Below are positions 3,490 through 23,362 of a DNA stretch of 24,000 nt, piece by piece. Every line of letters starts with the position of its first letter. Position 1 is the first letter of the stretch. The DNA is from Halomarina litorea (GTDB lineage: Archaea; Halobacteriota; Halobacteria; Halobacteriales; Haloarculaceae). The stretch lies in NCBI RefSeq assembly GCF_024227715.1, contig NZ_CP100448.1:1609655-1633654 (forward strand), read 5' to 3'. The translations under genes were made by a program, and so were the position numbers. Under the pieces are notes generated by a model. It had not been told where the DNA came from. It saw only the letters and a list, made by a program, of their open reading frames with translations, and did not search any database.

Positions 3490-4860
3490 ATGCGCCGGTC
3501 CAGCGCGACGCTCGCGGGACTCCTCGCCCTCGTATCCCTCGCGGGCGCGACGGGCGTGGCCCGCGCCCACGAACTCGGAGGGACCCGGTTCGAGGCCCCC
3601 ATCCCCTTGCCCCTCCTGCTCGTCGGAGCGGGGCTGACGGTGGGGGTCACCGCGGCCGTCCTCGCACGCGCGGACCGGGGGGACCGACCCCCCGCAAGCG
3701 AGGACCCGACGGACGGTGGCGAGTGGGAGCGCTCCCGCCGACTGGGGACGGTCTCACCGACGATAGGCCGCACCCTCCGGACCGTGGTGAGCGTCGGCTT
3801 CCTCGCGGTGTTCGTCGGCGTCCTGCTGGCGGGCCTGTTCGGGTCGCGGAACGCACTGGACAACCCCGCGACGCTGTTCGTCTGGGCGGTCTGGTTCCGC
3901 GGGCTGGGCCTCGTGAGCGCCCTCGCGGGCAGTCCGTGGCGCGTCCTCGCCCCGTGGCGGATCATCTATCGGGGGTTCGTCGCGCTGGAGGGGCGGACGG
4001 TCGGCCCGTTCGACTACCCGGAGCGACTGGGCCACTGGCCCGCGCTCGTGGGGTTCCTGCTCCTCCTCGGCGTCGGCGAGAACCTCACCGTCGCCCCCCG
4101 GACGGTGTCGCTGACGGTCCTCGTCGTCGTCGCGTACGCGCTGGTCATGCTCGCGGGGGCCCTGCTGTTCGGCCCGGTCTGGTTCGAGCGCGCCGACCCG
4201 CTGGACGTGCTCTACCGCCTGTTCGGGCGGGTCGCTCCTCTCAGGTTCCGACGGACCGGTAAGGGGGGCTACACCGTCCACCTCCGGGTGCCGTGGGGGT
4301 CGGGCGGGGCCGTCGCCGACGCCGCCGTCGCGGCGTTCGTCGTCGCCGCCGTCTACACCGTCAGTTTCGACGGGTTCGACGGGACGCCCGAGTACCGCAC
4401 GCTGGCGGAGTCGCTGGGCCGGGCGACGGGTCTCGGACCGCTCGTGGACCTGCCGCTGTACCTCGCGGGCCTCCTCGCCTTCGTCGGGACGTTCGCGCTG
4501 GTCGCGCGCCTCACGCGGTCCGGGCCGACCCGGGGGGCGCTGGTCGCCCTCGCGCCGACCGTCCTCCCCATCGCCGTCGCCTACGAGGTGGCGCACAACT
4601 ACCCGTACGTCCTCTCGCGGGCCGGACGGCTGGTCGAGGTGCTCGTCGGAGTCGGCGCGGACCCACTGGCGTGGCTCTCGGTCCCCGCGTTCTGGGCATC
4701 GCAGGTCGCACTCGTCGTCGCCGGCCACCTCGTCGCCGTCGTCGCGGCCCACCTCGCCCTGCGGGGGCGTCCCGCGCGGGCGGAAGTGCCGCTGACGGCC
4801 GCGATGGTCGGGTACACGGTGCTCTCGCTGTGGATCATCTCGCGACCCGTCGTCGCCTGA
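3490..4860 (+). CDS. Polytopic membrane protein of unknown function (about 10 TM segments, N-terminal signal-like sequence)
   Basis: About 456 aa from the ATG at 3490 (MRRSSATLAGLLALVSLAGATGVARA/HELGG). It has repeated hydrophobic helices, with conserved-looking polar motifs in the TM regions (YEVAHNYPY, AGHLVAVVAAH). The upstream extension to 3403 is Arg-rich and unlikely to be coding. Confidence 0.75.
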   Translation: MRRSSATLAGLLALVSLAGATGVARAHELGGTRFEAPIPLPLLLVGAGLTVGVTAAVLARADRGDRPPASEDPTDGGEWERSRRLGTVSPTIGRTLRTVVSVGFLAVFVGVLLAGLFGSRNALDNPATLFVWAVWFRGLGLVSALAGSPWRVLAPWRIIYRGFVALEGRTVGPFDYPERLGHWPALVGFLLLLGVGENLTVAPRTVSLTVLVVVAYALVMLAGALLFGPVWFERADPLDVLYRLFGRVAPLRFRRTGKGGYTVHLRVPWGSGGAVADAAVAAFVVAAVYTVSFDGFDGTPEYRTLAESLGRATGLGPLVDLPLYLAGLLAFVGTFALVARLTRSGPTRGALVALAPTVLPIAVAYEVAHNYPYVLSRAGRLVEVLVGVGADPLAWLSVPAFWASQVALVVAGHLVAVVAAHLALRGRPARAEVPLTAAMVGYTVLSLWIISRPVVA

Positions 4861-7617: not shown

Positions 7618-8166
7618 TTATCGGCGCGCGCGGAGGACGAACGTCTCGCGGCGCTCGCTGGCGTGTTCGACGGTGAACCCCGCGTCCGTGAGGGCGTCCA
7701 TCGCGTCCTGTAGCGCGTAGCGTTCGTCCGTCGGCGGCCCCTCGCCGCCCTCGCCGTTTCGGGTCCAGTCCGCGATGCCGAGGAGTGCGTCGGGTCGCAG
7801 GACGCGGGCGAGTTCCCCCAGTGCCTCGTCGCTCGCGAACTCGTGATAGGTCATCGTCGAGAACGCGCCGTCCAACTGGTCGTCGGCGAACGGGAGGTCC
7901 GCGATCTCCGCGACGACGAACTCCACGTTGTCGGGAGCGCCCTTCTCGCGGTAGTACTCGTGCATCTCGTCTTGCACGTCCACGGCGTGGACCGTCTCGG
8001 CGTAGGGGGCGACGTGGTCGGTGTAGAACCCCGTTCCGCTCCCGAGGTCGGCGACGGTACCCTGCGGGTCGAACAGGGCGAGCAGTTCGTCCACCGAGAG
8101 GTACTGGTAGCGCGTCGGGTCCTCCAGGTTGTCGGCCCGGGATGGGTCGTACGTGTGAAATCCCAC
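7618..8166 (-). CDS. Class I SAM-dependent methyltransferase
   Basis: 182 aa. Motif I is VADLGSGTGFYT, and an acidic residue after beta-2 (AVDVQDEM) is present. It appears to use a GTG start at 8166. Confidence 0.9.
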   Translation of the reverse strand: MGFHTYDPSRADNLEDPTRYQYLSVDELLALFDPQGTVADLGSGTGFYTDHVAPYAETVHAVDVQDEMHEYYREKGAPDNVEFVVAEIADLPFADDQLDGAFSTMTYHEFASDEALGELARVLRPDALLGIADWTRNGEGGEGPPTDERYALQDAMDALTDAGFTVEHASERRETFVLRARR

Positions 8167-8255
8167 GTCCGACCCAGTGGCCCCACGGGGATAACTCTCC
8201 GCTCCCCGGGCGAGGTCCCGGCGGATTCATACCGACCCGTCGCTATCGGACCCAC

Positions 8256-11094: not shown

Positions 11095-12066
11095 TTACTT
11101 GACGGTCGGCGCAGGCCGCTCGTCGGGTTCGCCGTCGAGGTCGATGTCGCCGGTCACGTGGTCGATGCCGACGACGAGAGCGGCACCGACGACGGCGGCG
11201 CCGAGGATGGCGGCGCTGGTTCCCGCCGACCACGTCTCGACGTTCGTGAGCACCTGCTCCGCCGGGTAGCGCAGCGCCCCGACCATCAGTGCGACGAGGA
11301 AGGTGAGCGTCGCCTCCCGGTAGTGCCGGAGCGCGTACTTCACGGCGTGGGCGATAGAGAACAGGCCGACCATCGCCCCGAGAACGAACACGACGACGAC
11401 GGTGCCGGGTTCGATCAGCGCGCCCACGTCGGTCCCCCCGGCGACGCCGAGGAGCGTGTCGACGAACCCCGAGAGCGTCTCGGTCAGGAAGAGGTACTGC
11501 CCGAGCAACAGGAGGATGAGCGCCCCCGAGATGCCGGGCAGAATCATCGCGCAGATGGCGATGGCACCGGCGAGGCCGACGACGGGGAGGGTGTGCGGGA
11601 GCGCCCCCGACACCTCCCCCGCGAGTACGAACGCGAGGCCGAACCCCGCGATACCGGCGGCGAGGCGCGACGGCCCGTCGACCGACACCTCGTCGCGGAG
11701 GATGACGGCGCTCGCCGCGATGAGGCCGAAGAAGAACGCGAACAGGAGCGCCGGGGCCGTCTCCTCGGCGTAGTGGACCGCCCGCGAGACGGTGATGAGG
11801 GCGGTGACGATGCCGAACCCGAGCGCCATCAGGAACGGCACGTCCATCGCCACGAGTCGCTCGCGGAGGCGGGCGCGCCCGGATGCGCTGGCGACGCCGG
11901 GCAGGAGCGCGATGGCCGTCGGGTCGAGTTCCGTGATGGCCGTGATGAGTCGCTCGTAGATGCCCGTGATGAGGGCGATGGTACCCCCGGAGACGCCGGG
12001 CACGGCGTCGGCCGCACCCATGGCGATGCCCTTCAGGTAGACGCCGACGAGTTCACGTCCGGCCAT
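11095..12066 (-). CDS. DUF368 family membrane protein (PopT-type polyprenyl-phosphate transporter family)
   Basis: 323 aa. It has the hallmark N-terminal motif GIAMGAADAVPGVSGGTIALITGIYERLI and an internal repeat (ILPGISGALILLLLGQY), and is polytopic. Its ATG (12066-12064) is 1 nt from the aglB stop codon (12070-12068). Confidence 0.9.
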   Translation of the reverse strand: MAGRELVGVYLKGIAMGAADAVPGVSGGTIALITGIYERLITAITELDPTAIALLPGVASASGRARLRERLVAMDVPFLMALGFGIVTALITVSRAVHYAEETAPALLFAFFFGLIAASAVILRDEVSVDGPSRLAAGIAGFGLAFVLAGEVSGALPHTLPVVGLAGAIAICAMILPGISGALILLLLGQYLFLTETLSGFVDTLLGVAGGTDVGALIEPGTVVVVFVLGAMVGLFSIAHAVKYALRHYREATLTFLVALMVGALRYPAEQVLTNVETWSAGTSAAILGAAVVGAALVVGIDHVTGDIDLDGEPDERPAPTVK

Positions 12067-12067
12067 C

Positions 12068-15000
12068 TCAGGCCGCCCCGGCGCGGAGTGTCGACTGCGT
12101 CACCGGGCCGACGAGCGCGGACGCGTTGGCCTCGGACGCGTTCCCGGACTCGTTCGAACCGTTCCCACCGGTCGACCCGTTCGAGGCGTTCCCGCCCGCG
12201 TCGGAGCCGTTCTCCGCGGCGTCCGGCGACTCGGTGGTGTTGCCGGGGTCGGCGGGCGCGTCGGTGCCGTTCGTCCCGTTGCTGGCGTTCGCGCCGTCCG
12301 GTTCGATAACCTCGGACTGTTCGAGGGTCACCTCGATGGGGCCCTCGCGCTCGCCGACGACGTTCGCCTCGTTCACGTCGGCCGTCGCGTTGTACACCGT
12401 CGTGGTGAGGTTCTCGCTCTGCGTGGCGGCGCGGAACTCGTAGGGGCCGGCCGCGCGGACGCTCACGTTCGTGTAGCCCTCCTCGGTCCCCCACTCGTCG
12501 TACCCGGTCGTCGAGTACGGCAGAGTCATCGTGAACTGCCCCTGTGCGTCGGTCTGGGCCTGCTGGACGTAGGTGAAGTTCTGCCCCGGCCCCGGAATCC
12601 GCAGCTGCACGCGAGCCGTGACCGTCGTGTTCGCGGGGCCGGTCCCCTCGACGGTCGCTCCGTCGACGCGCTCGAAGGTCTTGACCCACTGACCGACACC
12701 GCCCGCGGTGGCGTCACTCGCGTGGACCAGCCGGTAGTGTTCGAGCGCCTCGACCTGCTCGGCGGGGATGCCGGGGAGGCCGCCGATCTGCGAGGTGGAG
12801 TCGTTCTGGACGTACTCCTCGGCCGCGGCGAGACTGTCGAAGGTCTTGTACACCTGCCCGTCGGACGGGACCGCGGCCAGCGGTTGGGTCGTCTGGCTCC
12901 CGACCGTGAACTGTCGGGTCTCCCAGTCGACGACCAGCACCTTCCCGTTGGGGAGGGTGGGGCCGGCAGCGCTCCCGTGGAATCGGTAGAGCCTGACGCG
13001 CATGCTCTCGTAGTGATCCTGACTGCGGACGAGTTGGGCAGTCCGCGGGGCCTCGGTCGTGGACCGCTGCGTGTAGATTCGGGCGCTGAGCAGGTCGGCG
13101 GAGCTGACGCCGATGGTGTCGAAACTCGCCGGCGCGGTGTACTTACCCGAGCGCGGGTCCGCGAGCTTCCAGTCGACCATCACGTAGCGGCTGGACCCGT
13201 TGTCCACGGTCATGTACTCGTTCGCCTGACTCTCGTTCTGGCCGAGCAGGAAGTTCGCCGCACGGGTCGCCCCCTGCTGGAACGGGTTGGCGTCGGGGAT
13301 GCGCTGGCCCTCGACGGTGATGAAGTGCCCGTAGTCCCACCACGCCATGACCCCGTAGGCTCCCTCGGGGTAGTCGTAGTCGTCGGTCTGTCCGAAGTTC
13401 TCGTAGTACGGCATCGCCTCGCCGTCGGGGTTGGCGTACTGGCCTTCCTTCGGCGTGTTCTCCGAGAGCCACTGCAGGCTGCCCTGCCACGCGGTGACCT
13501 CGCCGGGACCGTTGTTCTCCGCGCGTTCGACGGACTGGAGGGATATCGCGCCGGGTTCGACGCCGCCGGACTGCGGGAACAGCGGGCCGGTGACGGCCAC
13601 GAACGGGGCGAAGACGATGAGGACGATGACTGCGATGGTCATCACCTGCGAGGCGTCGAGGTCCGAGAGGCTCCCGACGGTGTCGAGGTCCGCGAGGGCG
13701 ACGACCTGTGCGACGACGTACGCCGTCAGCGCCCCCACCGGGACGGCGAGGTAGTAGCCAAAGCGGTTCTGGGTGAGCGTCGCGAGCACCATCATCGCCC
13801 CCCAGAGGACGAGCAGGAGGGCCTCACCGCGCGGGTCGTCGTCGAGCAGGTAGCGCCCGAGGAGGACGAGGCCGCCGACGACGGCCGCGAAGAACGCCAG
13901 CCCGTAGGAGCCGAAGAAGTACGAACTGGCCCGTCCGAGCGGGATGGGCTGGGCCTCGTTGACCGTCCGGACCTTCGCGTTGGCGTCCAGCCCGTAGATG
14001 CGGAGGGACTGGTCGACGAAGAACGAGAACGTGTCGGGCAGGACGACGGCGAACAGGAGCGTCCCGAGGGCGATGGCCCCGAGGATGCCCCCGACGTAGA
14101 CGGTGGTCGCGTCGTCGCGCCCCTCGACTCGCCGGGCGAGTGCGGCCATGACGGCCAGTCCGCCGGCCAGCAGGACGAACAGCGTCGGCTGGAGCAACGA
14201 GAAGTCGGTCGCGGTGAACTCGAACTTGGTGATGCGGACCGCAGAGAACACCCCCGCGACGAGGAACATGACGACGCCGACGATGGCGACGTGTTCCGGG
14301 CTGTGGCCCTTGAGGAACGTGACGATGAGGTGGGCGAGGAAGAACAGTCCGAGGACGGAGACGACGAAGATGCCGGGCGGCCACACCCAGATGTAGAGCG
14401 CGATGGCGACGCCCGCGAGGGCCGCGAAGCCGAGCGGCCGGCGGAGCGTCGAGAACTCGCGGGACGAGAGCTGTTCGAAGACGGGTTTCTCGCGCTCGGC
14501 GGCGGTGACCGCGACCATCACGCCGAGCATCGCGAGGACCTGGAAGAACACCTCCGCAATGTGGTGGTCCGACCAGCCGACCAGCCCCCGGAAGAGGAAC
14601 GCACCGGGGGTCAGCGCGAGGACGGTGACGGCGACGACGCCGCCCGCGCGGCCCCCGAAGCGCTTGGCGAGGAAGTAGGCGGGGACGGCGACGAGGGTGC
14701 CGAAGACGGCGGGGGCGAACAGGAGCGCGAACGCCGTCGCCTGCTCCTGGGGCATGACGAGACCGAGGACGAGGGCTACCGTGGCGATCAACTGGTCGAA
14801 CAGCGTCCCGAACTGCCCCGGGGCGGTCCCGTACGGGAAGAACGTCCACGGATCGAAGTTCATCGTGAACGGCCAGTTGCTCACCGTGAAACTCGTCTGG
14901 CGGAAGTGGTACCAGGCGTCGTTCCCGCTGAAGAGGATGTCGCCCCCTCTGGTGTAGTTCTCCCACGTTCTCACACGGTTCCACAACATGAAGACGAACA

Positions 15001-15100
15001 GGAGCGCGAGCAGCGGGACGTGATACCACTCGCGGGCCCGGTCGAGGAGGGCGTCCGTGTCGAACGCCAACCGGTCCTCCCGCTCCGTCGGTTGACTCAT
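12068..15100 (-). CDS. aglB: Archaeal oligosaccharyltransferase AglB (STT3 family)
   Basis: About 1010 aa. It has a multi-TM N-terminal half with an SGNDAWYHF loop motif. The catalytic WWDYG motif (VMAWWDYGHF) is encoded at 13328-13342. A large soluble C-terminal domain follows. I trimmed the start from 15127 to the ATG at 15100 (MSQPTEREDRLAFDTD) because 15125-15127 lies inside the putative TATA element. Confidence 0.95.
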   Translation of the reverse strand: MSQPTEREDRLAFDTDALLDRAREWYHVPLLALLFVFMLWNRVRTWENYTRGGDILFSGNDAWYHFRQTSFTVSNWPFTMNFDPWTFFPYGTAPGQFGTLFDQLIATVALVLGLVMPQEQATAFALLFAPAVFGTLVAVPAYFLAKRFGGRAGGVVAVTVLALTPGAFLFRGLVGWSDHHIAEVFFQVLAMLGVMVAVTAAEREKPVFEQLSSREFSTLRRPLGFAALAGVAIALYIWVWPPGIFVVSVLGLFFLAHLIVTFLKGHSPEHVAIVGVVMFLVAGVFSAVRITKFEFTATDFSLLQPTLFVLLAGGLAVMAALARRVEGRDDATTVYVGGILGAIALGTLLFAVVLPDTFSFFVDQSLRIYGLDANAKVRTVNEAQPIPLGRASSYFFGSYGLAFFAAVVGGLVLLGRYLLDDDPRGEALLLVLWGAMMVLATLTQNRFGYYLAVPVGALTAYVVAQVVALADLDTVGSLSDLDASQVMTIAVIVLIVFAPFVAVTGPLFPQSGGVEPGAISLQSVERAENNGPGEVTAWQGSLQWLSENTPKEGQYANPDGEAMPYYENFGQTDDYDYPEGAYGVMAWWDYGHFITVEGQRIPDANPFQQGATRAANFLLGQNESQANEYMTVDNGSSRYVMVDWKLADPRSGKYTAPASFDTIGVSSADLLSARIYTQRSTTEAPRTAQLVRSQDHYESMRVRLYRFHGSAAGPTLPNGKVLVVDWETRQFTVGSQTTQPLAAVPSDGQVYKTFDSLAAAEEYVQNDSTSQIGGLPGIPAEQVEALEHYRLVHASDATAGGVGQWVKTFERVDGATVEGTGPANTTVTARVQLRIPGPGQNFTYVQQAQTDAQGQFTMTLPYSTTGYDEWGTEEGYTNVSVRAAGPYEFRAATQSENLTTTVYNATADVNEANVVGEREGPIEVTLEQSEVIEPDGANASNGTNGTDAPADPGNTTESPDAAENGSDAGGNASNGSTGGNGSNESGNASEANASALVGPVTQSTLRAGAA

Positions 15101-15124
15101 TGGTGGGAGAAGCCGCAAAACGCG

Positions 15125-15135
15125 CATAAGCCTTT
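15125..15135 (-). promoter_or_regulatory. Candidate TATA-like element (minus-strand AAAGGCTTATG) for aglB
   Basis: About 28 nt upstream of the ATG at 15100 in the 120-nt divergent intergenic region. A CTTAACC element at 15193-15199 sits about 25 nt upstream of the divergent GT2 ATG at 15221. Confidence 0.3.
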
Positions 15136-15220
15136 TGACCTCGTGTCACCGGAAAAAAGCGCCCCGGGCACCGACGAGCGAAGAGAAAGCGGCTTAACCT
15201 CGGCTGTAAACTGCCGGAGT

Positions 15221-16162
15221 ATGCGCGTCTCGGTCGTCGTCTGCACTCACACCACCGACCGCTACCCGGACCTCCGCGAGGCCGTCGAGAGCGTCCTCGC
15301 GAACACCTACGAGGACCGTGAGGTGGTCGTCGTCAGCGACGGGAGCGAGGCGGTGTACGACCGGGCAGTGGCGGACTTCGGCGACCACCCGGATGTCCGC
15401 GTCCACCTCCAGCCGGAGAACCGGGGGTTGCTCGCGGTGCGAAACACCGGTGCGCGCGTCGCCGAGGGGGACGTGGTCGCGTTCCTCGACGACGACGCCA
15501 TCGCGGAGGACCGCTGGCTGGTCGAACTCGTCGCGGCCTACGACGAGGGCGACGCTCGCGCCGACGACGGCCGGGTGCTCGCGGCCGGTGGCCGGGTCGT
15601 CCCCGCGTGGGTCGCCGGCGAACCCGCCTTCCTCCCCGAGGAGTTCCACTGGCTTATCGGCGTCACCCACCGGGGGTTCGCCGACGGCCCCGGCGAGGTC
15701 CGGAACACGAACGGCTCGAACATCTCGTTTCGCGCCGACGTCTTCGAGGAACTGGGCGGGTTCGACACCGACGTCGGCGGACGGAAGGGCGACAACCACC
15801 TGCAGGGCGGCGAGACGGAACTCTGTGCCCGCCTGCGCGAGGAGTTCGGCGTCGGCGTCCAGTACAACCCCGCGGCCCGCGTGGCCCACAAGATATTCGA
15901 CTACCGCACGGACCCCCGCTGGCTCGTCGAACGGGCGTTCTGGCAGGGGTACTCGAAACGCGGGATGGAGAAGTTCGTTCCCGAGTCGACCGGCGAGGAG
16001 GAGGAGTTCCTCGGCGACCTGCTGTTGCGGTTCGTCCCGGACCGCGTGCGTGGACTCCTCCTCGGTCCCTCACTGGCCTCGTTTCTCCAGTTGGTGTTCC
16101 TGTTCGTCCTCACGGGGGCGGTGGGGGCGGGCTACCTCTACGGCATCGTCAAGTGGCGCTGA
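15221..16162 (+). CDS. GT2-family glycosyltransferase, AglG-like (dolichyl-phosphate-linked glycan elongation)
   Basis: 313 aa (MRVSVVVCTHTTDRYPDLREAVESVLANTYEDREVVVVSDGS...). It has a DxD motif (AFLDDDA) and a C-terminal TM helix (FLQLVFLFVLTGAVGAGYLYGIV). It is divergent from aglB, in the position aglG occupies in Haloferax volcanii as I recall it. It is the only real part of the 1146-aa ORF-track entry 12722..16162. Confidence 0.85.
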   Translation: MRVSVVVCTHTTDRYPDLREAVESVLANTYEDREVVVVSDGSEAVYDRAVADFGDHPDVRVHLQPENRGLLAVRNTGARVAEGDVVAFLDDDAIAEDRWLVELVAAYDEGDARADDGRVLAAGGRVVPAWVAGEPAFLPEEFHWLIGVTHRGFADGPGEVRNTNGSNISFRADVFEELGGFDTDVGGRKGDNHLQGGETELCARLREEFGVGVQYNPAARVAHKIFDYRTDPRWLVERAFWQGYSKRGMEKFVPESTGEEEEFLGDLLLRFVPDRVRGLLLGPSLASFLQLVFLFVLTGAVGAGYLYGIVKWR

Positions 16163-16171
16163 GGGGTCGGG

Positions 16172-17017
16172 TCAGTCGAGGGCCGCGGGCGCGTCGCTCT
16201 CGTACTCCCAGACTAAATCGAAGTAGCGGTTGAGCCCCGCGACGAACGCCCCGTTTTCGGTGATTGCCGCCTGTCGCATGTAGTTGGGCACGTCGTCCTC
16301 CTGAACCAGCAGGATGGCCTCGCCGGTGTCGTAGGCCATGCTCGGGTCGGCGAGCGTCCCGCGCCACGGCAGGGCGTTCGTGGAGTAGCGGATACCGACC
16401 TCGGGGTACGCCGCCCGGAGGTGGTCGACCACGTCCCGCTGGCGTTCGCGGTTCTCCGGGTCCAGCGTGTCCGGGTGGAGCAAGAGCGCCCGGAGGTCGA
16501 TGCCTCGGTCGACGGCGTCCGCGACGGCGGGTTCGACCGTCTCGAAGTACTCGAAGGCCTTCGTGAGCACGCGCACGCGCTCGTCGGCCTCGTGGTAGAT
16601 GCGCCGGGTCTCGCGCTCGCTCGGTTCGCCCACGTCGACGACGTAGAACAGTTCCTCGGCGGCGGTGATGTCCTCGCCCGCGCGCTCGAAGCGAGGGCCG
16701 AACTCCGCGAGGAACGACTCCCGTTCGGCCTCGATGTCGCCGACGAACGCCTCGTAGTCCTGCCGGCGGTTCTCCTCCGCGCGGTCGAGAATCTCCTCGG
16801 GAGGGTGTGGCTGGTAGTGCTTCGGTCGGCCGGGGATGACCTTCACGTACCCCTCGTCGGCCAGCGAGTCGAGGACGCCGTAGACGCGGGCCTTCGGGAT
16901 GCCCGCCGCCTCGGCGAGGGTGGGTGCGGTCGTGCGACCGAGCGAGAGCAGTTCGGTGAGGGCCGTCCGCTCGTACTCGGTGAGACCGAGTCGCTCGAAC
17001 ACGTCCGTCTCGCTCAT
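16172..17017 (-). CDS. TrmB-family transcriptional regulator
   Basis: 281 aa. It has the N-terminal TrmB wHTH (FERLGLTEYERTALTELLSLGRTTAPTLAEAAGIPKARVYGVLDSLADEGYV) and a C-terminal TrmB-type effector domain region. It is convergent with the GT2 gene, with a 9-nt gap. Confidence 0.9.
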   Translation of the reverse strand: MSETDVFERLGLTEYERTALTELLSLGRTTAPTLAEAAGIPKARVYGVLDSLADEGYVKVIPGRPKHYQPHPPEEILDRAEENRRQDYEAFVGDIEAERESFLAEFGPRFERAGEDITAAEELFYVVDVGEPSERETRRIYHEADERVRVLTKAFEYFETVEPAVADAVDRGIDLRALLLHPDTLDPENRERQRDVVDHLRAAYPEVGIRYSTNALPWRGTLADPSMAYDTGEAILLVQEDDVPNYMRQAAITENGAFVAGLNRYFDLVWEYESDAPAALD

Positions 17018-17110
17018 ACCCCCTCTGCCCCGCCGCCGGCCGTAAATCCGCCGGTGTCGTCGGCGTGATGCGTACCACTACTGCCCGCGAAGCGACGGCG
17101 GGCCGGAACG

Positions 17111-17118
17111 ATTAATAG
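17111..17118 (+). promoter_or_regulatory. TATA box (ATTAATAG) upstream of the palindrome and micro-ORF
   Basis: The only strong AT-rich box in the 17018-17152 intergenic region. The predicted TSS (about 17138-17146) falls inside the inverted repeat. Confidence 0.4.
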
Positions 17119-17129
17119 GATTCGATGAG

Positions 17130-17152
17130 AGTTACTCACTCAGCGAGTAACT
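17130..17152. promoter_or_regulatory. Perfect 8-bp inverted repeat AGTTACTC-N7-GAGTAACT (contains TACT-N8-GAGTA): candidate TrmB operator
   Basis: Read directly from the sequence. The arms are 17130-17137 and 17145-17152, and the repeat abuts the ATG at 17153. It is about 115 nt upstream of the divergent TrmB-family gene start. It matches the TACT-N7-8-GAGTA motif reported for Halobacterium salinarum TrmB, cited from memory. Confidence 0.45.
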
Positions 17153-17275
17153 ATGAGCCGAACCTCGACGAAGGACGACGACCGCGCGCATCTCGACGAC
17201 CTCGAAGACGGCTGTGGCTGTGCGGAGGTGTGGGAGCACCTCAGCGAACGCCGCGCGGCCGAGGCCGACGACTGA
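17153..17275 (+). CDS. Micro-ORF, 40 aa, acidic CxC protein (unannotated; below the ORF-track cutoff)
   Basis: My translation is MSRTSTKDDDRAHLDDLEDGCGCAEVWEHLSERRAAEADD. About 35 of 40 codons end in G/C, like the real genes here, and it is acidic. It sits directly after a TATA box plus palindrome. Confidence 0.45.
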   Translation: MSRTSTKDDDRAHLDDLEDGCGCAEVWEHLSERRAAEADD

Positions 17276-17338
17276 GCGCGGTCGGTCCCCGGTCGGCTCT
17301 CCCCTGTGTCCCTGTCACAGAGTTCCTGGCGCGAGGCC

Positions 17339-17352
17339 AGCAAGCTTTTGCT
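17339..17352 (+). promoter_or_regulatory. AT-containing near-palindrome AGCAAGCTTTTGCT, a candidate TATA/operator for the aglJ-like gene
   Basis: The CTTTTG core is centred about 28 nt upstream of the ATG at 17375. The flanking arms AGCAA/TTGCT are complementary. Confidence 0.3.
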
Positions 17353-17374
17353 CGCGTAGCATGGACTTCCCACG

Positions 17375-18364
17375 ATGACCGACTCCGAGGTGTGCGTCCT
17401 CGTCCCCACGCTCGACGAAGCCGAGACCATCGGCGAGGTGCTCGACGGCTTTCGCGAGCGAGGGTTCGACGACCTCCTCGTCGTCGACGGCGGTTCGACC
17501 GACGGCACCCGCGACGTCGCCGAGGACCACGGCGCGCGGGTCGTCGTCCAGTCGGGCCGGGGGAAGGGACAGGCCATCCGCGAGGCGCTCACCTACATCG
17601 ACGCCCCGTACGTGCTGATGCTCGACGGGGACGCGACCTACGACCCCGCGGACGCCCAGCGGATGCTCGAACCCCTCTACGAGGGACGGGCGGAACACGT
17701 CATCGGCGACCGCTTCGCCGACATGCACGAGGACGCGATGCCGCGGCTCAACATGTTCGGAAACCGCCTCATCAACGGCGCGTTCTCGACCATCCACGGG
17801 CGCGACCTCGGGGACATCCTCAGCGGCTACCGCGCGTTCACCCGGGAGTCCGTCGAGCGCTTCGAACTCGAATCGGACGGCTTCACCATCGAGACGGAGA
17901 TGGCCGTCGAGTGCGTCAAACACCGGGTCCCGACCGCGGTCGTCCCCGTGAGCTACCACCCGCGGCCCGACGAGTCCGACACGAACCTCCACCCCGTCAA
18001 GGACGGCGGACGCATCATCGTCTCGCTGTACAGCCTCGCGAAGACGAACAACCCCCTGTTCTACTTCGGGAGCGTCGGCCTCGCCAGCGCACTCGTCGGC
18101 GGACTGGTCGCCGCGTGGGTCGGCTACGAGTACCTCTTCCGTGGTATCTCCCACGAGGCGTTCGCGGTGGTCGCCGCCGCGGGCATCCTCCTCGGCGCGC
18201 AACTGCTGATGTTCGCGGTGCTCTCGGACATGATCGTCGCCGTGAACCGCGAACAGACCCGCAGACTGGAGGAGATGAGCGACCGACTCGCGCGGACACA
18301 GGGCGGCCGCGGGACGGCCCGCGCGTCCCACTCCGACCCCGAACCGCTCCACGCCGAGGACTGA
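17375..18364 (+). CDS. aglJ: Dolichyl-phosphate hexosyltransferase-type GT2 (AglJ / DPM1-like)
   Basis: 329 aa. It has a GT2 catalytic domain (CVLVPTLDEAETIGEVLDGFRERGFDDLLVVDGGSTDGT, DxD as MLDGDATYD). C-terminal TM helices follow (FYFGSVGLASALVGGLVAAWVGY, AVVAAAGILLGAQLLMFAVL). The symbol is assigned by family resemblance and locus context only. Confidence 0.8.
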   Translation: MTDSEVCVLVPTLDEAETIGEVLDGFRERGFDDLLVVDGGSTDGTRDVAEDHGARVVVQSGRGKGQAIREALTYIDAPYVLMLDGDATYDPADAQRMLEPLYEGRAEHVIGDRFADMHEDAMPRLNMFGNRLINGAFSTIHGRDLGDILSGYRAFTRESVERFELESDGFTIETEMAVECVKHRVPTAVVPVSYHPRPDESDTNLHPVKDGGRIIVSLYSLAKTNNPLFYFGSVGLASALVGGLVAAWVGYEYLFRGISHEAFAVVAAAGILLGAQLLMFAVLSDMIVAVNREQTRRLEEMSDRLARTQGGRGTARASHSDPEPLHAED

Positions 18365-18381
18365 GGTCCCCTCTCGACTGC

Positions 18382-18711
18382 CTACAGCCCGACCAGCGAG
18401 CGGAGGCGGTCGAGGAACCCGCCGCCGCCCTGCGCGCGCGCCTCCTCGAACACCGGGTGGAGGGCGTTGAGGAACTCCTGTTCGTTCTCGAAGTGCTCGA
18501 CGGCGGTGCGCTCCAGCGCCTCGGCGACCGTGATGGTCGCCCCGGAGGCGTTGTAGGGGACCGCCTCGTCACCCATCGCTGAACGGACCGTCGCCGCGTC
18601 CGCCGGGAACGCGACGTCGCTCTCGTCGAGGCGGGCGTCGAGTGCGGCGATACCGAACGCGATGGTGTCCGGGCCGTCGTCCATGTCGTCTGTCGGTGGG
18701 CGGACGCTCAT
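18382..18711 (-). CDS. Hypothetical acidic protein (possibly DUF5789/DUF2795-like)
   Basis: 109 aa, high GC3, acidic. There is an alternative ATG at 18684. The family hint is weak and from memory. Confidence 0.6.
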   Translation of the reverse strand: MSVRPPTDDMDDGPDTIAFGIAALDARLDESDVAFPADAATVRSAMGDEAVPYNASGATITVAEALERTAVEHFENEQEFLNALHPVFEEARAQGGGGFLDRLRSLVGL

Positions 18712-18799: not shown

Positions 18800-19009
18800 A
18801 TGACGGAGTACACCACCGTCTCTATCCCGAAGGACCTCGCCGAACGCGTCGAGGGCACCATCGAGGGGACGAGCTTCTCGAGTACCAGCGACCTCGTCCG
18901 GTTCCTCCTCCGGAGCATCGTCATCCAGCACCAGCGCTCTGGGGGCCTCTCGGAGGCGGAGTTCGAGGAGATAGCGACGCAACTCCGCGACCTCGGCTAT
19001 CTGGAGTGA
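18800..19009 (+). CDS. Ribbon-helix-helix (CopG-like) DNA-binding protein
   Basis: 69 aa. It has an N-terminal beta-strand followed by helices (TTVSIPKDLAERVEGTIEGTSFSSTSDLVRFLLRSIV), which is typical of RHH proteins. Confidence 0.8.
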   Translation: MTEYTTVSIPKDLAERVEGTIEGTSFSSTSDLVRFLLRSIVIQHQRSGGLSEAEFEEIATQLRDLGYLE

Positions 19010-19012
19010 GGC

Positions 19013-19435
19013 TCAGGTGACCGACTCGACGGGCGGTTCCGCGTCGAGGACGGTCAGGTCGAGGCGCGTCCCGTACCGGTCGTACGCGACGACTTCCTCC
19101 CAGGGCGGAACGGCAACGAACACCACCTCGTGGAAGTCGTCGGTCTGTTTCAGCGTCCGCGCCCCGTCCGGGTGCGAGACGAACCGGCCCTGCGTCCGGG
19201 GGCTGGCGAGGTCCATGCCGAACACCGCCCGTACCGACCCGCCCGTGTCCGGCAGGTAGAAGTGCGTGAACACCGGCGTGTCGGACGGCACGCCGTCGAG
19301 TGGGCCGTCCTCCGACGCCGACGCGACTAGCGTCCCCGCCGGAGTGACCGAGAGGCCGATGGTGACCGACCGGGGCTCTCTGTCGCTGGCGAATCCGAGA
19401 AGCGCCTCGGCCAGTCCCGCAGTGATGTACACCAC
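19013..19435 (-). CDS. JAB/MPN-like domain protein with a degenerate JAMM motif
   Basis: 140 aa. Its layout resembles small archaeal JAMM proteins: YITAGLAEALLGFA...EPRSVTIGL, then LPDTGGSVRAVFGMDL, then GRFVSHPDGARTLKQTDDF. Canonical enzymes have H-S-H-P...S-x-x-D in this last position. Here the first His is Val. It uses a GTG start. Confidence 0.6.
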   Translation of the reverse strand: MVYITAGLAEALLGFASDREPRSVTIGLSVTPAGTLVASASEDGPLDGVPSDTPVFTHFYLPDTGGSVRAVFGMDLASPRTQGRFVSHPDGARTLKQTDDFHEVVFVAVPPWEEVVAYDRYGTRLDLTVLDAEPPVESVT

Positions 19436-19513
19436 GTCGTACCGTCGCCGGGAACGGACAAGAAGCCGCCGCCTATCCTCACTGGAAAGTTTACTATGCC
19501 GTCATTAATGTGC

Positions 19514-19526
19514 AAATATTTATTAT
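19514..19526 (+). promoter_or_regulatory. Strong AT-rich TATA region (AAATATTTATTAT) for the 44-aa micro-ORF
   Basis: The most AT-rich stretch in the window. It ends about 26 nt upstream of the ATG at 19552, which suggests a leaderless transcript. It lies in a 116-nt divergent intergenic region shared with the JAB-like gene. Confidence 0.45.
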
Positions 19527-19551
19527 CGCCGGCTCTGACTGACATGACGTA

Positions 19552-19686
19552 ATGTCCGACAGCCCACTCACACAGTACCTCGCGGAGCACCCCAAGATGA
19601 CCGGCGTCCTGTTCACCATGCTGCTACTCCTCTCGCAGGCGGGGTCGGTCGCCGCCGGCGTCGGCACGGCCAACCCCGGCCCGTAA
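19552..19686 (+). CDS. Micro-ORF, 44 aa, single-TM hydrophobic peptide (unannotated; below the ORF-track cutoff)
   Basis: My translation is MSDSPLTQYLAEHPKMTGVLFTMLLLLSQAGSVAAGVGTANPGP. It has high GC3 and a strong upstream TATA. Its stop (19684-19686) is 7 nt from the stop of the convergent 700-aa gene. Confidence 0.5.
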   Translation: MSDSPLTQYLAEHPKMTGVLFTMLLLLSQAGSVAAGVGTANPGP

Positions 19687-19693
19687 TCTCCCC

Positions 19694-21796
19694 TCAAAGG
19701 TCGTCCAGCGACAGTTCCTCACTCCAGTGGAGGTCACCGTCGACGTACACCGGCGTCGGCCCGAGGCGTAACAACGCCGAGAGGTCCTCCTTCTCGACTG
19801 CGAACTCCCGGCTGACGTTCCCCGCGAGGAAGTTCCGGCCCACCCCGCGGAGCGCTGGCGTCGCGGTGGTGCCAAGCCCACAGAGGCGCGTCGGGTACGC
19901 TCTGAAGCGGACGGTGTAGCGCTCGCCGTCCGGTTCGACGTAGAGGATGAACGGGGTGATGGTCTCGGCCTGCGCCACCTCCACGTTCCCGTCGCCCACC
20001 ACGAGGTACTGCCCGCCGACGACGCTCTCCTTGCTCGCGATGTTGAGCGCCGCCTGCACCGGGAACCCGCCGTTGAGCAGGCGGGCCATCGTCATCCCCA
20101 CCGTCGTCGCCCCGGCGTTGATGACCTCGTCGAAGGTGCTGACGCCGCCGATGGCGCCCCCCTCGACGAGCGCCATCCCCTGCTCGTAGGAGCGACAGGC
20201 GTTCAGGAAGAACACGTCCACCCCCACCCGGTCGAGCGTCCGGGCGTCGAGATGACCGTCGGGACAGCGCAGTCCCTCGTCGTCGATGTGGCCGATGTAG
20301 TGCAGGAAGTCGACGTCGGACTCGAGGACGAGTCTGAGGCGGTCCGTCGAGAGGTTCCGGTAGAACGTCACGTCGAACGGGAGTTCGTCGCGCGACCCGT
20401 AGACGTCGCGTGCCGTCTCCTGCTCGGTCAGCATCTCGGGGTCGTTACAGACGACGGCGATTCCGAAGTCCGCCATCGTCGGCTCCTGGTCCAGCCGGTT
20501 GCGGTAGGCCTTCACCGTCACCTTGCTCGCCCCGACGGGGGCGTCCGCCCCGGCCCACGCCTGTTCGAGCGAGTCGACCGGCTCGGGTCGCACCAGCCGC
20601 GGCGGACACCCCGCCGTCCCGCACGACTGGTCCGGGTGCGACCCGCGCGTGTCGCGCATGAACGTCTCGATGGCCGCCGACTGCGCCTGCGCGGGCGTCA
20701 GCTCCTCGCCACGCGGCGTGCGAATCACCGCGAGGTCGTCGACGAGGAAGGGGAGCGTCTCGACGCGATCCGGCGTCGGTTCGACGTGTCCCGTCAGCTT
20801 CCACGTCGGCATGTGGGGTTCGAGCGCCTCGAACGGAGCCGTGAGGTACGTCGCGAGCTGTTCGGTCAGCGACTGGTCGTACGTCTCCGCGAGGTCGAAC
20901 GGGAGGACCCCCGCGTCCTCGACGGCCCGTCGCTCGTAGAGGTCGACCGGGTAGTACCCCTCCGTGCGGACCAGACAGTCGAGGAAGAACACCTGTTTCA
21001 GCGTCCGTTCGACCACCGTCTCGAACCCCTCCGGGCCGTCGAGCGGGTGGACGAACCCCCGGTCCGTGACCACGCGGGGGCTGTCGCCAGGGACGACGTC
21101 CGCCCCGAGGTAGTACGCGAGCGGGGCGACGACGAACGCGGACTCGACCGAGGGCGGCACCTCGATGGTCACGCCGTTCTCGGGGCGTTCGAGCCCCGCC
21201 GGGACGTGGAACGCCTCGCCGAGTTCGATGGCGGGCGGGTGCCCGCGCAGGGTGGGGTACGAGCGCTCCGGGCTGACCGTCTTCAGCGCCGACCCGAGGT
21301 ACGAGACGGCCCGGAGCAGGTCCTCGGGGTCCTCGGTCGTCGTGATGGTCGCGGCGGGCCGGTCGTGGTACGAGCGCGCCCCCGCGAACACCGTGGGGTC
21401 GCCCTCGAGGTCCACGGAGACCGTAGTCGCGTCGGAGGTCACCCGGAGTGGTCCCTCGACGCGGAGGTAGAGCTTGATGGGCGCGCTGAACTCGACGGTG
21501 TAGACGCCCTCCGGGAAGCGCTGTTCCTCGAAGTGGCCGATCTCCCTGACGAGGGTGCCGTCGGCGTCGCGGACGTAGGTGTCGACGAGTTGCGGGAAGA
21601 CGAGGCCGTCGGTCTCCACGACTACGGCGGTGTCGACGGGGACGACGAACGGACTGCCGTCGACGACGCGCGCCGTCACTTCCGATTCGGTGTGGAGGTC
21701 ACAGCGCCGTCGCTCGATGCGGTCGGTGACGCGGAGTCCCCCACCACCGGGGAGGGTGTCGATTTCGACGAAGGTCACGTGCGTCGACCCTCCCAC
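19694..21796 (-). CDS. Large orphan protein: about 440-aa N-terminal region of unknown fold plus a C-terminal CHAT/caspase-like Cys-protease domain
   Basis: 700 aa, acidic, high GC3. Residues about 443-602 follow the CHAT pattern: IAVVCN strand, DFLHYIGH(503)IDDEG, VFFLNAC(534)RSYEQG, LVEGGAIGGVSTFDEVIN...ARLLNGGFPVQAALNIA. The H503 codon is at 20288-20290 and the C534 codon is at 20195-20197. It uses a GTG start at 21796 (alternative GTG at 21777), and there is no nearby ATG. Confidence 0.8.
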   Translation of the reverse strand: MGGSTHVTFVEIDTLPGGGGLRVTDRIERRRCDLHTESEVTARVVDGSPFVVPVDTAVVVETDGLVFPQLVDTYVRDADGTLVREIGHFEEQRFPEGVYTVEFSAPIKLYLRVEGPLRVTSDATTVSVDLEGDPTVFAGARSYHDRPAATITTTEDPEDLLRAVSYLGSALKTVSPERSYPTLRGHPPAIELGEAFHVPAGLERPENGVTIEVPPSVESAFVVAPLAYYLGADVVPGDSPRVVTDRGFVHPLDGPEGFETVVERTLKQVFFLDCLVRTEGYYPVDLYERRAVEDAGVLPFDLAETYDQSLTEQLATYLTAPFEALEPHMPTWKLTGHVEPTPDRVETLPFLVDDLAVIRTPRGEELTPAQAQSAAIETFMRDTRGSHPDQSCGTAGCPPRLVRPEPVDSLEQAWAGADAPVGASKVTVKAYRNRLDQEPTMADFGIAVVCNDPEMLTEQETARDVYGSRDELPFDVTFYRNLSTDRLRLVLESDVDFLHYIGHIDDEGLRCPDGHLDARTLDRVGVDVFFLNACRSYEQGMALVEGGAIGGVSTFDEVINAGATTVGMTMARLLNGGFPVQAALNIASKESVVGGQYLVVGDGNVEVAQAETITPFILYVEPDGERYTVRFRAYPTRLCGLGTTATPALRGVGRNFLAGNVSREFAVEKEDLSALLRLGPTPVYVDGDLHWSEELSLDDL

Positions 21797-21832
21797 CCGT
21801 CGCGCCTACACATTGTCACGAGTACTATTCCG

Positions 21833-21848
21833 ATTTTTTAGATAAAAA
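21833..21848 (-). promoter_or_regulatory. AT-rich TATA region (minus-strand TTTTTATCTAAAAAAT) for the 700-aa gene
   Basis: A prominent AT tract in the 92-nt gap, about 40-45 nt upstream of the GTG at 21796. This implies a short 5' leader. Confidence 0.4.
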
Positions 21849-21888: not shown

Positions 21889-22563
21889 TCAGCGCAGGAA
21901 CTCGCGCATCGCCTCCACGTACAGCCCCGGCGCGCGCCGCCGCGAGTTGCGGACCGTGTCCCGAATCGCGGCCGCCGCGTCGGTCATGACGCCCTCGCCG
22001 TGGCCCATCACGACCCGCTCGACGTCGTAGCCGGCGAGTTCCCGCGGCGGCAGGAGGCGGAGCATCGGGTGGACGCCCACGCGTTCGCCCGCCGTCAGGA
22101 AGTACGACGCGGTGCCGAGTGCCTCGGGGACCACGAGGGTCCCGTCCTCGGGGTGGTGGAGGTACGCCTCGCGCCAGACCGGCGAGTCCCTGAGCTTCCG
22201 GACCCGGTAGCCGGTGTCGTCGACCTCGTCTCCGAGGTCACGCACGGGCACGTCGTAGTTCGAGTCGATGCTGTCCATCCACGCCGGGCGGTGGACGGAG
22301 ACGCCGTGACGGGCGGCGATATCGTTCGCGTCGCGGTTGTGCCGGTCGAGGAGGACGACGATGCCCGCGACCTCCCCCGCCTCGGCGAGCAGGTCGTCGA
22401 GACCCTCGGCGTCGACCGGGTCGACCAGCCAGACGTCGCCGTCGCTCACGAACGCGTGGCTCGCTCGTTCCATCCCCTCGTCGGGGTACGCGAGCCACCC
22501 GAACCCGCCGTCCCAGCGGTCGATTTCACGCAGCGAGGTCGCACCGGACCCTTTCAGCGACAT
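21889..22563 (-). CDS. MBL-fold-like protein with a degenerate metal-binding motif
   Basis: 224 aa from the ATG at 22563 (MSLKGSGATSLREID). It has the MBL-like layout (ASHAFVSDGDVWLVDPVD...AGIVVLLDRHNRDANDIA), but HxHxDH is replaced by D-R-H-N-R-D. The upstream extension to 22719 is Ser/Arg/Pro-rich and unlikely to be coding. Confidence 0.75.
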   Translation of the reverse strand: MSLKGSGATSLREIDRWDGGFGWLAYPDEGMERASHAFVSDGDVWLVDPVDAEGLDDLLAEAGEVAGIVVLLDRHNRDANDIAARHGVSVHRPAWMDSIDSNYDVPVRDLGDEVDDTGYRVRKLRDSPVWREAYLHHPEDGTLVVPEALGTASYFLTAGERVGVHPMLRLLPPRELAGYDVERVVMGHGEGVMTDAAAAIRDTVRNSRRRAPGLYVEAMREFLR

Positions 22564-22654
22564 AACAGTGGGTAGGGGCGGGCGCCGGATAAACCGTCGC
22601 GAGGGGGCAAGCGAGCGGGACCCCGGGGATGGGACGCGGGCCGGGGTGGCAGTT

Positions 22655-23362
22655 ATGTCCCCGCCCGTGCGAGATAGCGACATGCTCACGTCGCTCGCGT
22701 GGCTCGCCCTCGAAGTCAAGTACCTCGACCCCGCTCGCGAGTTCTACGAGACCCACCTCGATCTGCCCGTCGCCCGGGAGCGCGAGGGCGAGGTGGCGTT
22801 CGCCGCGGGCGACACCGACCTCGTGTTGCGCGCGCCGGGACCCGTCCCGCGGGGCGGCCTCCACGTCCACTACGCCATGTCGACGCCCGCGGACCGCTAC
22901 GACGACTGGTGGAAGCGACTGGAGGGCGACTTCGACCTCGACGAGCACACGTTCGGGAGCGCGCGCTCGCTGTACTTCTACGACTGCGAGGGCAACTGCG
23001 TCGAAATCGGCCAGTCAGACGACGGGGGTGCCGACATCACCGGCGTCTTCGAGGTGGTCCTCGAGGTCGAGGATCTCGCGCGCGCCGAACGGTTCTACAG
23101 CGCCCTCGGGATGGACGTCGTGGACCGCGGCGAGGGCCGGAAGCGCGTCAGGCTGACCGCCGGTCCCTTCGACTTCGAACTGTGGGAGCCACACCTCGGC
23201 CTCGCGGACGCCCGCGGCGGTGTCCACGTCGACCTCGGCATCGAGACGGAGGACCCGACGGGAGCGGCCGACGCGGTTCGCGGGCAGGCGCTCGCCGCGA
23301 CGCCCGTCGAGGAGGGGATGCGCGTCCGCGACCCCGACGGGCACTACCTCACCTTCCTGTGA
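22655..23362 (+). CDS. VOC-family (glyoxalase / bleomycin-resistance / dioxygenase) two-module protein
   Basis: 235 aa from the ATG at 22655 (alternative ATG at 22682, MLTSLAWLALEV). It has two beta-alpha-beta-beta-beta modules with the typical ends (LYFYDCEGNCVEI; VRDPDGHYLTFL). Confidence 0.85.
   Translation: MSPPVRDSDMLTSLAWLALEVKYLDPAREFYETHLDLPVAREREGEVAFAAGDTDLVLRAPGPVPRGGLHVHYAMSTPADRYDDWWKRLEGDFDLDEHTFGSARSLYFYDCEGNCVEIGQSDDGGADITGVFEVVLEVEDLARAERFYSALGMDVVDRGEGRKRVRLTAGPFDFELWEPHLGLADARGGVHVDLGIETEDPTGAADAVRGQALAATPVEEGMRVRDPDGHYLTFL

Follow-up and report, generated by a model that had tools for sequence, protein, structure and literature searches.

We analysed a window of 24,000 nucleotides (nt) of high-GC DNA (GC ~0.69) from the chromosome of the haloarchaeon Halomarina litorea (contig NZ_CP100448.1, positions 1,609,655 to 1,633,654 of the forward strand), focusing on a large minus-strand gene of 700 codons that an earlier note, made from the sequence alone, had described as an orphan with a C-terminal caspase-like domain. 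We found that this gene codes for a protein with a divergent CHAT-type protease domain, and that it forms a conserved two-gene unit with a convergent gene for a 44-amino-acid (aa) micro-protein of the Pfam family DUF7503 (PF24335). We propose, giving this reading about an even chance of being right, that the two genes make up a module of the class Halobacteria in which a cytoplasmic CHAT protease works together with a dedicated membrane micro-protein partner.

Most of what is known of CHAT proteases concerns eukaryotic separase and the effectors of CRISPR and CBASS defence in bacteria. The known ones are controlled allosterically and have dedicated, genetically linked proteins as their targets; Craspase, for example, cleaves Csx30. 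In the literature, we could find no mention of DUF7503 or of the Haloferax volcanii micro-protein D4GX86, nor any description of the large-protein family or of its pairing.

A divergent CHAT-type domain with a conserved His-Cys dyad

The large protein contains the two motifs DFLHYIGH(503)IDDEG and VFFLNAC(534)RSYEQG, at exactly the positions given in the earlier note. His precedes Cys, and each ends a hydrophobic strand, which is the arrangement of CHAT and clan CD peptidases. The full-length AlphaFold model, based on a 20-sequence alignment (predicted local distance difference test, pLDDT, 69.7; predicted template modelling score, pTM, 0.65), is made of four blocks: a beta-sandwich (residues ~10-145), an alpha/beta-helical domain (~150-360), a disordered segment (361-432), and an alpha/beta/alpha domain (445-600) followed by a beta-rich C-terminal domain. 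The catalytic domain is modelled with pLDDT 64-91.

When the full model was compared with the PDB by Foldseek, the best match was SAVED-CHAT (8tl0; E=6.7e-6, 179 columns, 21% identity), followed by yeast separase (5u1s, 6e-4), Csx29/TPR-CHAT (7zoq, 2.7e-3; 7y84, 7.9e-3), gingipain RgpB, and procaspase-3 (7e-3). The top matches are all peptidases of the clan-CD caspase-hemoglobinase fold, CHAT members first, with probabilities of 0.98-1.00. Matches of the full model to Piwi/Argonaute and RecA-like proteins were rejected, having low template modelling (TM) scores and not recurring with a model of the N-terminal part alone.

The predicted catalytic residues H503 and C534 are each kept in 71 of the 72 aligned members, down to 34% identity, and H499, G502, N532, and S536 show little or no variation. 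The sole exception is a paralogue, P0177, where both dyad residues are lost (H to E and C to N), and such joint loss is as expected of a coupled dyad.

Concerning sequence profiles, the window protein has no match in Pfam, NCBIfam, PADLOC, or among PDB sequences, even at E<=10. In single scans of 70 relatives, the Pfam CHAT model PF12770 was matched by 22 at E<=1 (best E=8e-6) and Peptidase_C25 weakly by four. None of the 70, nor the window protein itself, matches Peptidase_C14, the family that with its p20/p10 arrangement defines caspases, metacaspases, and orthocaspases. A profile built from the 70 members returned nothing relevant among PDB sequences. The family is thus a divergent outlier of the CHAT model, whose curated threshold the window protein does not reach, and since the direct profile search was empty the assignment needed homologues and structure. 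With the clan-CD structural matches, the sub-threshold CHAT matches of the relatives, and the conservation of both dyad residues, the CHAT/caspase fold first proposed for residues 443-602 is borne out, and we accept residues ~445-600 as a divergent CHAT-type protease domain with predicted peptidase activity.

A conserved pairing with the DUF7503 micro-protein

The stop codon of the large gene lies 7 nt from that of a micro-open reading frame (micro-ORF) on the opposite strand, which is a full-length match to PF24335 (78.9 bits against a cut-off of 27, E=2.1e-22). Conservation of this micro-ORF, one of the checks suggested in the earlier note, turned out to be the most productive lead. DUF7503 is adjacent and convergent to the large gene in 67 of 80 genome loci by tblastn, and in 72 by profile hidden Markov model (HMM). 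The other eight include one truncated locus, one with an assembly gap where DUF7503 is present all the same, one with a same-strand DUF7503 650 nt away, and one with a divergent copy, in Halomarina oriensis (L002). The remaining neighbours of the large gene in the window are conserved in just 3 to 19 of the 80 loci, and no other neighbour of any kind in more than 34. In 23 loci the stop codons of the pair directly abut (0 nt), in eight they overlap (-4 nt), and in many others they are 20-161 nt apart.

The dependence also holds in the reverse direction. Among 30 true DUF7503 ORFs from metagenomes, recovered by a loose degenerate DNA pattern and then filtered by HMM, 28 converge on a large gene next to them; the two without it are at locus ends, so that the pairing holds in 28 of 28 assessable cases. 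Moreover, the two families are of similar size (1,565 DUF7503 clusters and at least 1,861 for the large protein), and each of three plasmid paralogues examined has its own DUF7503 beside it. Even the catalytically dead P0177 (L201, 1555-3633, plus strand) keeps a 51-aa DUF7503 gene (3641-3796, minus strand) 7 nt from its stop, and is probably a pseudo-protease that still uses its partner. Finally, substitutions per site at codon positions 1, 2, and 3 of the micro-ORF amount to 0.26, 0.16, and 0.49, a 3>1>2 pattern indicating that it evolves as a protein.

Whether the two proteins evolve together was addressed in two ways. In a mirror-tree regression on 91 pairs, DUF7503 distances track the N-terminal domains of the large protein (weights 0.28 and 0.20) and not the CHAT domain (0.02), while column-level mutual information between DUF7503 and the large protein gave no enrichment in any domain.

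Design of the DUF7503 micro-protein

We compared 179 distinct DUF7503 sequences, and these share a common design. A short N-terminal region (median 12 residues, net charge -1.75) carries the motif Y/F-L-x-E-(N/H)-P-(R/K)-M, where R/K is present in every copy fitting the motif, the following Met in 167 of 177, and Glu at P4 in 124 of 177. About 30 uncharged and mostly hydrophobic residues, probably a membrane helix, come after it. The motif is followed by the hydrophobic stretch GVLFTxxLLL(S/T)QAG (median 19-residue hydropathy 1.63; 1.85 in the window copy) and then by an Ala-rich segment. The tail after QxG is hypervariable among members, yet has exactly 13 residues in 141 of 177 sequences, is charged in only 14 of 177, and ends in Gly-Pro in 169 of 179.

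These sequences are read most simply as those of a micro-protein that spans the membrane once and exposes an N-terminal peptide to the cytosol. We consider less likely a signal-peptide-like arrangement (n, h, and c regions, an AxA-like site, and a secreted peptide of 8-9 residues), as the N-region carries a net negative charge and conservation is highest in the N-terminal motif. The divergent DUF7503 of H. oriensis (L002, ~8075-8206, minus strand; MESKQLKSFLESHPKLMEYAFAGTMAAGTIGVEMSTIAANNGP), missed by the HMM, keeps FLESHPKLM and a C-terminal NNGP, with most of the hydrophobic core gone.

Architecture of the large protein

The large protein is likely cytoplasmic, as it contains no transmembrane segment or signal peptide in sequence analysis and is strongly acidic in composition. 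Of the ~440 N-terminal residues that had been taken for a single module of no recognisable kind, the lack of any known family or solved fold was confirmed; their extent was not, as they divide into a folded module of 362 residues and a disordered linker of about 70.

Modelled alone from 29 sequences, the N-terminal module reaches pLDDT 94.7 and pTM 0.90. Foldseek found no match for it in the PDB at E<1e-3, nor any among the viral structures of BFVD. Its beta-sandwich weakly resembles accessory domains of GH31/36/38/81 enzymes (TM ~0.2). This module holds most of the residues that are invariant in the family (R141, R184, P188, Y229, R277, and W332), as well as the conserved motifs ERSYPTLRGHPP and LKQxFFLDCxxRTEGY. 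Several invariant Arg and aromatic residues might line a ligand pocket, and we infer that the module represents the regulatory or recognition part of the protease.

The linker has pLDDT 25-36 across residues 361-432, carries large insertions in some homologues, and ends in a conserved SLEQAW...GASK segment. The C-terminal domain (pLDDT 64-82) contains an invariant G642 and near-invariant P682 and W691.

Distribution in Halobacteria and ancient paralogues

Far from being an orphan, the large protein belongs to a family with at least 1,861 homologous clusters among 8,000 candidates scored in a word-indexed search, the best 120 of which are all full-length, with 48-84% identity and from many genera. 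An HMMER scan of 1.84 billion representatives gave 798 clusters at 50% identity, 602 of them at E<=1e-30, and the top 150 are all of ~700 aa. Several orthologues bear automatic names in UniProt as CHAT- or caspase-domain proteins. A genome scan identified at least 346 loci in species genomes, each named one being of class Halobacteria, with more distant members in Natrialbales and Natronomonas. In addition, 35 copies are spread over 27 non-mobilizable megaplasmids of haloarchaea, chiefly Halorussus and Haladaptatus. More than one copy of the gene is present in some genomes. No copy of the large gene was found in virus records. Three 46-aa sequences (P0281, P0283, and P0284), which are members of the 90%-identity cluster of a 665-aa relative from Natronococcus occultus, are probably fragments or an oddity of clustering.

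A neighbour-joining tree resolves several groups, and DUF7503 is kept in all of them. In clade A, to which the window copy belongs, the large gene and DUF7503 are flanked by a 276-aa gene on one side and by a 140-aa gene, a ribbon-helix-helix (RHH) gene, and a DUF5789 gene on the other. Clade B differs in having a DUF7504 gene (PF24336) immediately upstream of the large gene and in the same orientation, an arrangement seen in 34 of 80 loci (for example L206, 7322-8035, minus strand; L204, 2034-2870, plus strand; L202, 962-1696, plus strand). One Haladaptatus plasmid copy has DUF7504 fused to a HalOD1 output domain, and in one Halorussus plasmid an IS5 transposase stands between DUF7504 and the large gene. 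We do not regard DUF7504 as a third universal component, since it is confined to one clade and absent from the window. A gene for a response regulator with a HalX domain flanks DUF7503 in 21 loci and is frequent in clade B; none is present in the window. Further groups are a Haloarcula clade and a clade specific to Haladaptatus. Clades A and B co-occur in the same genomes, indicating that they are ancient paralogues.

A natural disruption of the gene exists in Haloferax. The orthologue there is a 681-aa gene with a 0-nt gap to DUF7503. In H. volcanii DS2 and the assemblies of laboratory strains derived from it, a 2-bp deletion in a (GC)n run (GAGCGCGCGCGCGACC) causes a frameshift at about residue 245 of the 681-aa orthologue. 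The annotated DS2 product has 418 aa (ELY28044.1) and is found on 272 contigs. A comparison of the Haloferax loci (L205/L207/L211 with L206/L208) showed that the gene is intact in other strains of H. volcanii, H. alexandrinus, and H. lucentense. In locus L207 the adjacent trmB gene is also missing, pointing to an engineered strain.

Gene model and genomic context

The coordinates of the features discussed here are collected in Table 1. The ORF of the large gene is real as first called, with a GC content at third codon positions (GC3) of 0.92, in line with a genuine gene of H. litorea, and its product is 100% identical to a hypothetical protein of 694 aa from the same species. Both the NCBI annotation and the N-termini of the closest homologues favour GTG 21778, six codons downstream of GTG 21796, as the start, so that the true protein probably has 694 aa. 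Residue numbers in this text count from GTG 21796.

Table 1. Features of the large gene, its micro-protein partner, and their neighbours in the window (positions in the window).
Feature	Position	Strand	Basis or remark
Large gene (predicted CHAT-type cysteine protease)	19694..21796	-	700 codons from GTG 21796; ORF call and database match
N-terminal module, residues 1-362	20711..21796	-	AlphaFold; beta-sandwich ~10-145 and alpha/beta-helical domain ~150-360
Linker, residues 363-432	20501..20710	-	Disordered in the model; length varies among homologues
CHAT/caspase-hemoglobinase-fold domain, residues 443-602	19991..20470	-	Foldseek, dyad conservation, Pfam CHAT in relatives
H503, predicted catalytic	20288-20290	-	Motif LHYIGH
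C534, predicted catalytic	20195-20197	-	Motif FFLNAC
C-terminal beta-rich domain, residues 613-700	19697..19960	-	Secondary structure, conservation
AT-rich TATA-like element TTTTTATCTAAAAAAT	21833..21848	-	Upstream of the large gene; read from sequence
DUF7503 micro-protein gene, 44 aa, MSDSPLTQYLAEHPKMTGVLFTMLLLLSQAGSVAAGVGTANPGP	19552..19686	+	Pfam PF24335; convergent with the large gene
AT-rich TATA-like element AATGTGCAAATATTTATTATCG region	19505..19530	+	Precedes the DUF7503 ATG by ~25-35 nt; AT content is highest here in the window
276-aa gene	21889-22719	-	Directly upstream of the large gene
140-aa gene	19013-19435	-	Beyond DUF7503
69-aa RHH (CopG-like) gene	18800-19009	+	
AglJ	17375-18364	+	
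TrmB-family regulator	16172-17017	-	Between AglB and AglJ
AglB oligosaccharyltransferase	12068-15127	-	
VCA0040-like, undecaprenyl-phosphate translocase-like gene	11095-12066	-	

The large gene had been described as flanked by the two most AT-rich promoter regions of the window. In a GC scan with 80-nt segments, its flanks are indeed the first (0.41, at 19481) and joint-second (0.46, at 21801) most AT-rich, but the former, at ~19480-19550, would serve DUF7503 and the divergent 140-aa gene and not the large gene. Judging from position and composition, the TTTTTATCTAAAAAAT element may be the promoter of the large gene, and the AATGTGCAAATATTTATTATCG element that of DUF7503, whose transcript would then be leaderless.

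The genes of the window are ordinary ones: hydrolases, a DtxR-type repressor, AglB, AglJ, TrmB-type regulators, DUF5789, a small RHH protein, glyoxalases, and a cupin. AglB, AglJ, and the VCA0040-like gene are part of an N-glycosylation cluster (11095-18364). The 69-aa RHH protein has 81-94% identity across 17 loci of different genera, against ~40-75% for its neighbours, which is unusually high for a small DNA-binding protein. The 140-aa gene, with no Pfam or NCBIfam match, is conserved beyond DUF7503 in 17 of 80 loci (clade A) and is divergent from it, the two sharing one AT-rich region. The 276-aa gene is on the same strand as the large gene and kept in 19 of 80 loci; it gives very weak matches to metallo-beta-lactamase-like and RlaP models and is unrelated to the DUF7504 gene that occupies the same position in clade B. 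Long Arg/Pro-rich ORFs, antisense to real genes or out of frame with them (e.g. 17125-18582 and 20252-21841, both plus strand), are typical spurious ORFs of a high-GC genome and are separated from true frames by GC3 filtering.

A possible mechanism and its relation to known CHAT systems

In the mechanism that we propose, the large protein would be a cytoplasmic multi-domain cysteine protease using His503 and Cys534, in which the N-terminal module with its new fold would provide recognition or regulation, and the flexible linker and small C-terminal beta-domain would complete the protein. The protease would dock on the cytosolic E-x-P-R/K-M motif of DUF7503 and possibly cut after the invariant Arg/Lys. 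DUF7503 may thereby serve as a membrane tether, as a substrate, or as a securin-like regulator of a proteolytic switch at the membrane.

Among known systems, the separase-securin pair offers a parallel, having a caspase-fold CHAT-like protease with a large non-catalytic N-terminal region and a small partner, securin, that restrains it, of which DUF7503 would be a genetic analogue. Separase cuts after Arg in (S/D/E)xExxR (PMC11506125), and the conserved E-x-P-(R/K)-M of DUF7503 has an ExxR/K-like core. However, the N-terminal part of separase is a helical, TPR-like superhelix, whereas that of the large protein is a beta-sandwich plus an alpha/beta domain. DUF7503, unlike securin, is hydrophobic and probably embedded in the membrane, and no SMC or kleisin genes lie near the large gene.

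SAVED-CHAT (type III-B CRISPR/CBASS) also has a His-Cys CHAT domain C-terminal to another domain, in its case a sensor, and cleaves PCaspase after cA3-induced filament formation, an instance of allosteric activation (bioRxiv 10.1101/2023.06.23.546230). In contrast, the large protein has no SAVED match in Pfam and no SAVED or CARF structural match, and there is no cyclase or Cas10 in its neighbourhood. Its family is restricted to Halobacteria, vertically inherited, and paired with a 44-aa micro-protein rather than with PCaspase. Craspase (type III-E; gRAMP, TPR-CHAT/Csx29, and Csx30) shares the CHAT domain and a genetically linked partner, which in Craspase is the substrate; yet neither the large protein nor its locus has a TPR, gRAMP/Cas7-11, Csx30, Csx31, a sigma factor, or a CRISPR locus.

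A precedent for a CHAT domain in membrane-associated signalling by regulated proteolysis is DdvA of Myxococcus, a transmembrane anti-sigma factor with a periplasmic TPR-CHAT region, in which the CHAT domain stands beside the transmembrane helix in a signalling cascade (PMC11506125). DdvA is a single transmembrane polypeptide with a cytoplasmic zinc anti-sigma domain, whereas here a soluble protease and the hydrophobic product of a separate 44-aa gene would be involved, and no sigma factor.

Several observations weigh against the proposed module. The likeness to the ExxR site of separase concerns a short motif and could be due to chance, and the retention of DUF7503 by P0177 speaks for binding, and not for cleavage alone, as the basis of the pairing. 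The two co-evolution tests disagree, the weak N-terminal signal of the mirror-tree facing a flat mutual information. The genes are convergent and not co-transcribed, which is unusual for interacting partners, and the expansion of paralogues on megaplasmids is atypical of a simple housekeeping gene. Moreover, the loss of hydrophobicity in the H. oriensis copy makes the membrane location of DUF7503 uncertain, the viability of DS2 with its frameshifted allele means that the module is dispensable in the laboratory, and the window protein itself is invisible to direct profile searches.

Alternative readings

In a more specific version of the proposal, which we think improbable in its full form, a separase-like CHAT protease with a new-fold sensor would cut the membrane micro-protein between the R/K and M of E-x-P-R/K-M, or the micro-protein would act as a securin-like tether, making up a new archaeal proteolytic signalling system. 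The cut would free a hydrophobic peptide of ~28 residues, with a lineage-specific tail ending in Gly-Pro, that may be a signal or effector in the membrane or outside the cell. Such a signalling role would fit the paralogue-specific tails and the links to DUF7504/HalOD1 and to response regulator-HalX genes in sister clades.

A role in antiviral defence or abortive infection, similar to Craspase, SAVED-CHAT, or CHAT-gasdermin systems, where the CHAT protease, once activated by a sensor module, would free DUF7503 as a membrane-disrupting toxin, also seems unlikely to us. The nearest solved structures are those of defence CHAT proteases, DUF7503 is small, hydrophobic, and uncharged with a hypervariable tail, and paralogues have expanded on megaplasmids. 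However, PADLOC-DB gave no match at E<=10, and neither in the window nor in the conserved contexts is there a defence island or any defence gene. No SAVED, TPR, CARF, or Cas partner is found, and the class-wide spread with clade-specific chromosomal synteny implies vertical descent. The replicons of all plasmid copies are non-mobilizable, and no virus record holds a copy. The defence-related, Craspase-like setting suggested in the earlier note is thus not supported, the neighbours being housekeeping or regulatory genes. In its behaviour the module resembles a cellular component passed on by vertical descent, with ancient paralogues, rather than a mobile defence system.

The pairing might instead reflect coupling at the RNA level alone, through overlapping convergent 3' ends and antisense or transcriptional-interference control, either as in type I toxin-antitoxin systems or by mutual exclusion, and this we likewise hold to be rather doubtful. 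The two genes converge, about half of the loci have stop codons 0 or -4 nt apart, no terminator-like site was found between the genes, and the transcripts would overlap unless termination is immediate. In size and composition, DUF7503 also recalls the small hydrophobic type I toxins. However, the wider gaps seen in many loci and the same-strand copy 650 nt away show that overlap is not obligatory. Co-duplication through all the ancient paralogous clades, together with the strict reverse dependence, fits a protein pair better, and the N- and C-terminal peptide motifs of DUF7503 are conserved beyond its hydrophobic core. In the toxin-antitoxin version, moreover, the antisense partner would be a protein-coding mRNA of 700 aa.

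It is very unlikely, in our view, that the CHAT domain is a non-catalytic scaffold and that the conserved function resides in the N-terminal module. The failure of the window protein to match the Pfam CHAT model would agree with a pseudo-protease, as would the existence in nature of at least one member, P0177, in which both dyad residues are gone and the partner is kept, and the fact that the N-terminal module is the best-conserved and best-modelled part. Conservation of His and Cys in 71 of 72 members at ~34-60% identity, together with that of H499, G502, N532, and S536, is nevertheless hard to explain without catalysis.

Least probable of all, the large protein might be the source of the caspase-like activity of Haloferax, for which the earlier note had seen it as an obvious candidate. 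A paper of 2013 described a dominant LEVD-type, zVAD-FMK-sensitive activity in H. volcanii DS70. According to that paper, no clear caspase homologues exist in archaeal genomes, and the proteins behind the activity had not been identified. A caspase-fold His-Cys enzyme able, on this reading, to cleave LEVD/IETD substrates is indeed present in the genus. However, DS70 is a plasmid-cured derivative of DS2, and as the DS2 allele is frameshifted the full-length protein cannot explain the measured activity. At most a 418-aa fragment would be made, which holds the whole CHAT domain without the putative regulatory module and might conceivably be deregulated, but which would need an internal start and promoter. 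In addition, the conserved residues that follow strand 1 (N451, D/E452, and E458) include acidic ones that, by analogy with metacaspases, suggest a basic rather than an Asp P1 preference. A follow-up of 2019 by the same group, to judge from its title as cited in PMC9415839, reportedly ties the activity to the proteostasis machinery.

Significance for the Halobacteria

The two families were already represented by database labels, namely the uncharacterised entry for DUF7503 (PF24335) and the CHAT-named orthologues in UniProt. What is new is their pairing across Halobacteria, an N-terminal module with no solved structural relative, and a natural frameshift in a model strain. The pairing gives a function-linked context to a Pfam family of uncharacterised proteins and to a micro-protein gene, of a kind difficult to study. 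The frameshift of DS2, set against the intact alleles of sister strains, represents a ready-made genetic contrast. Contrary to the older statement that they have no homologues, haloarchaea do encode a caspase-fold enzyme, and these data would make a CHAT protease part of the regular gene complement that an entire archaeal class inherits vertically.

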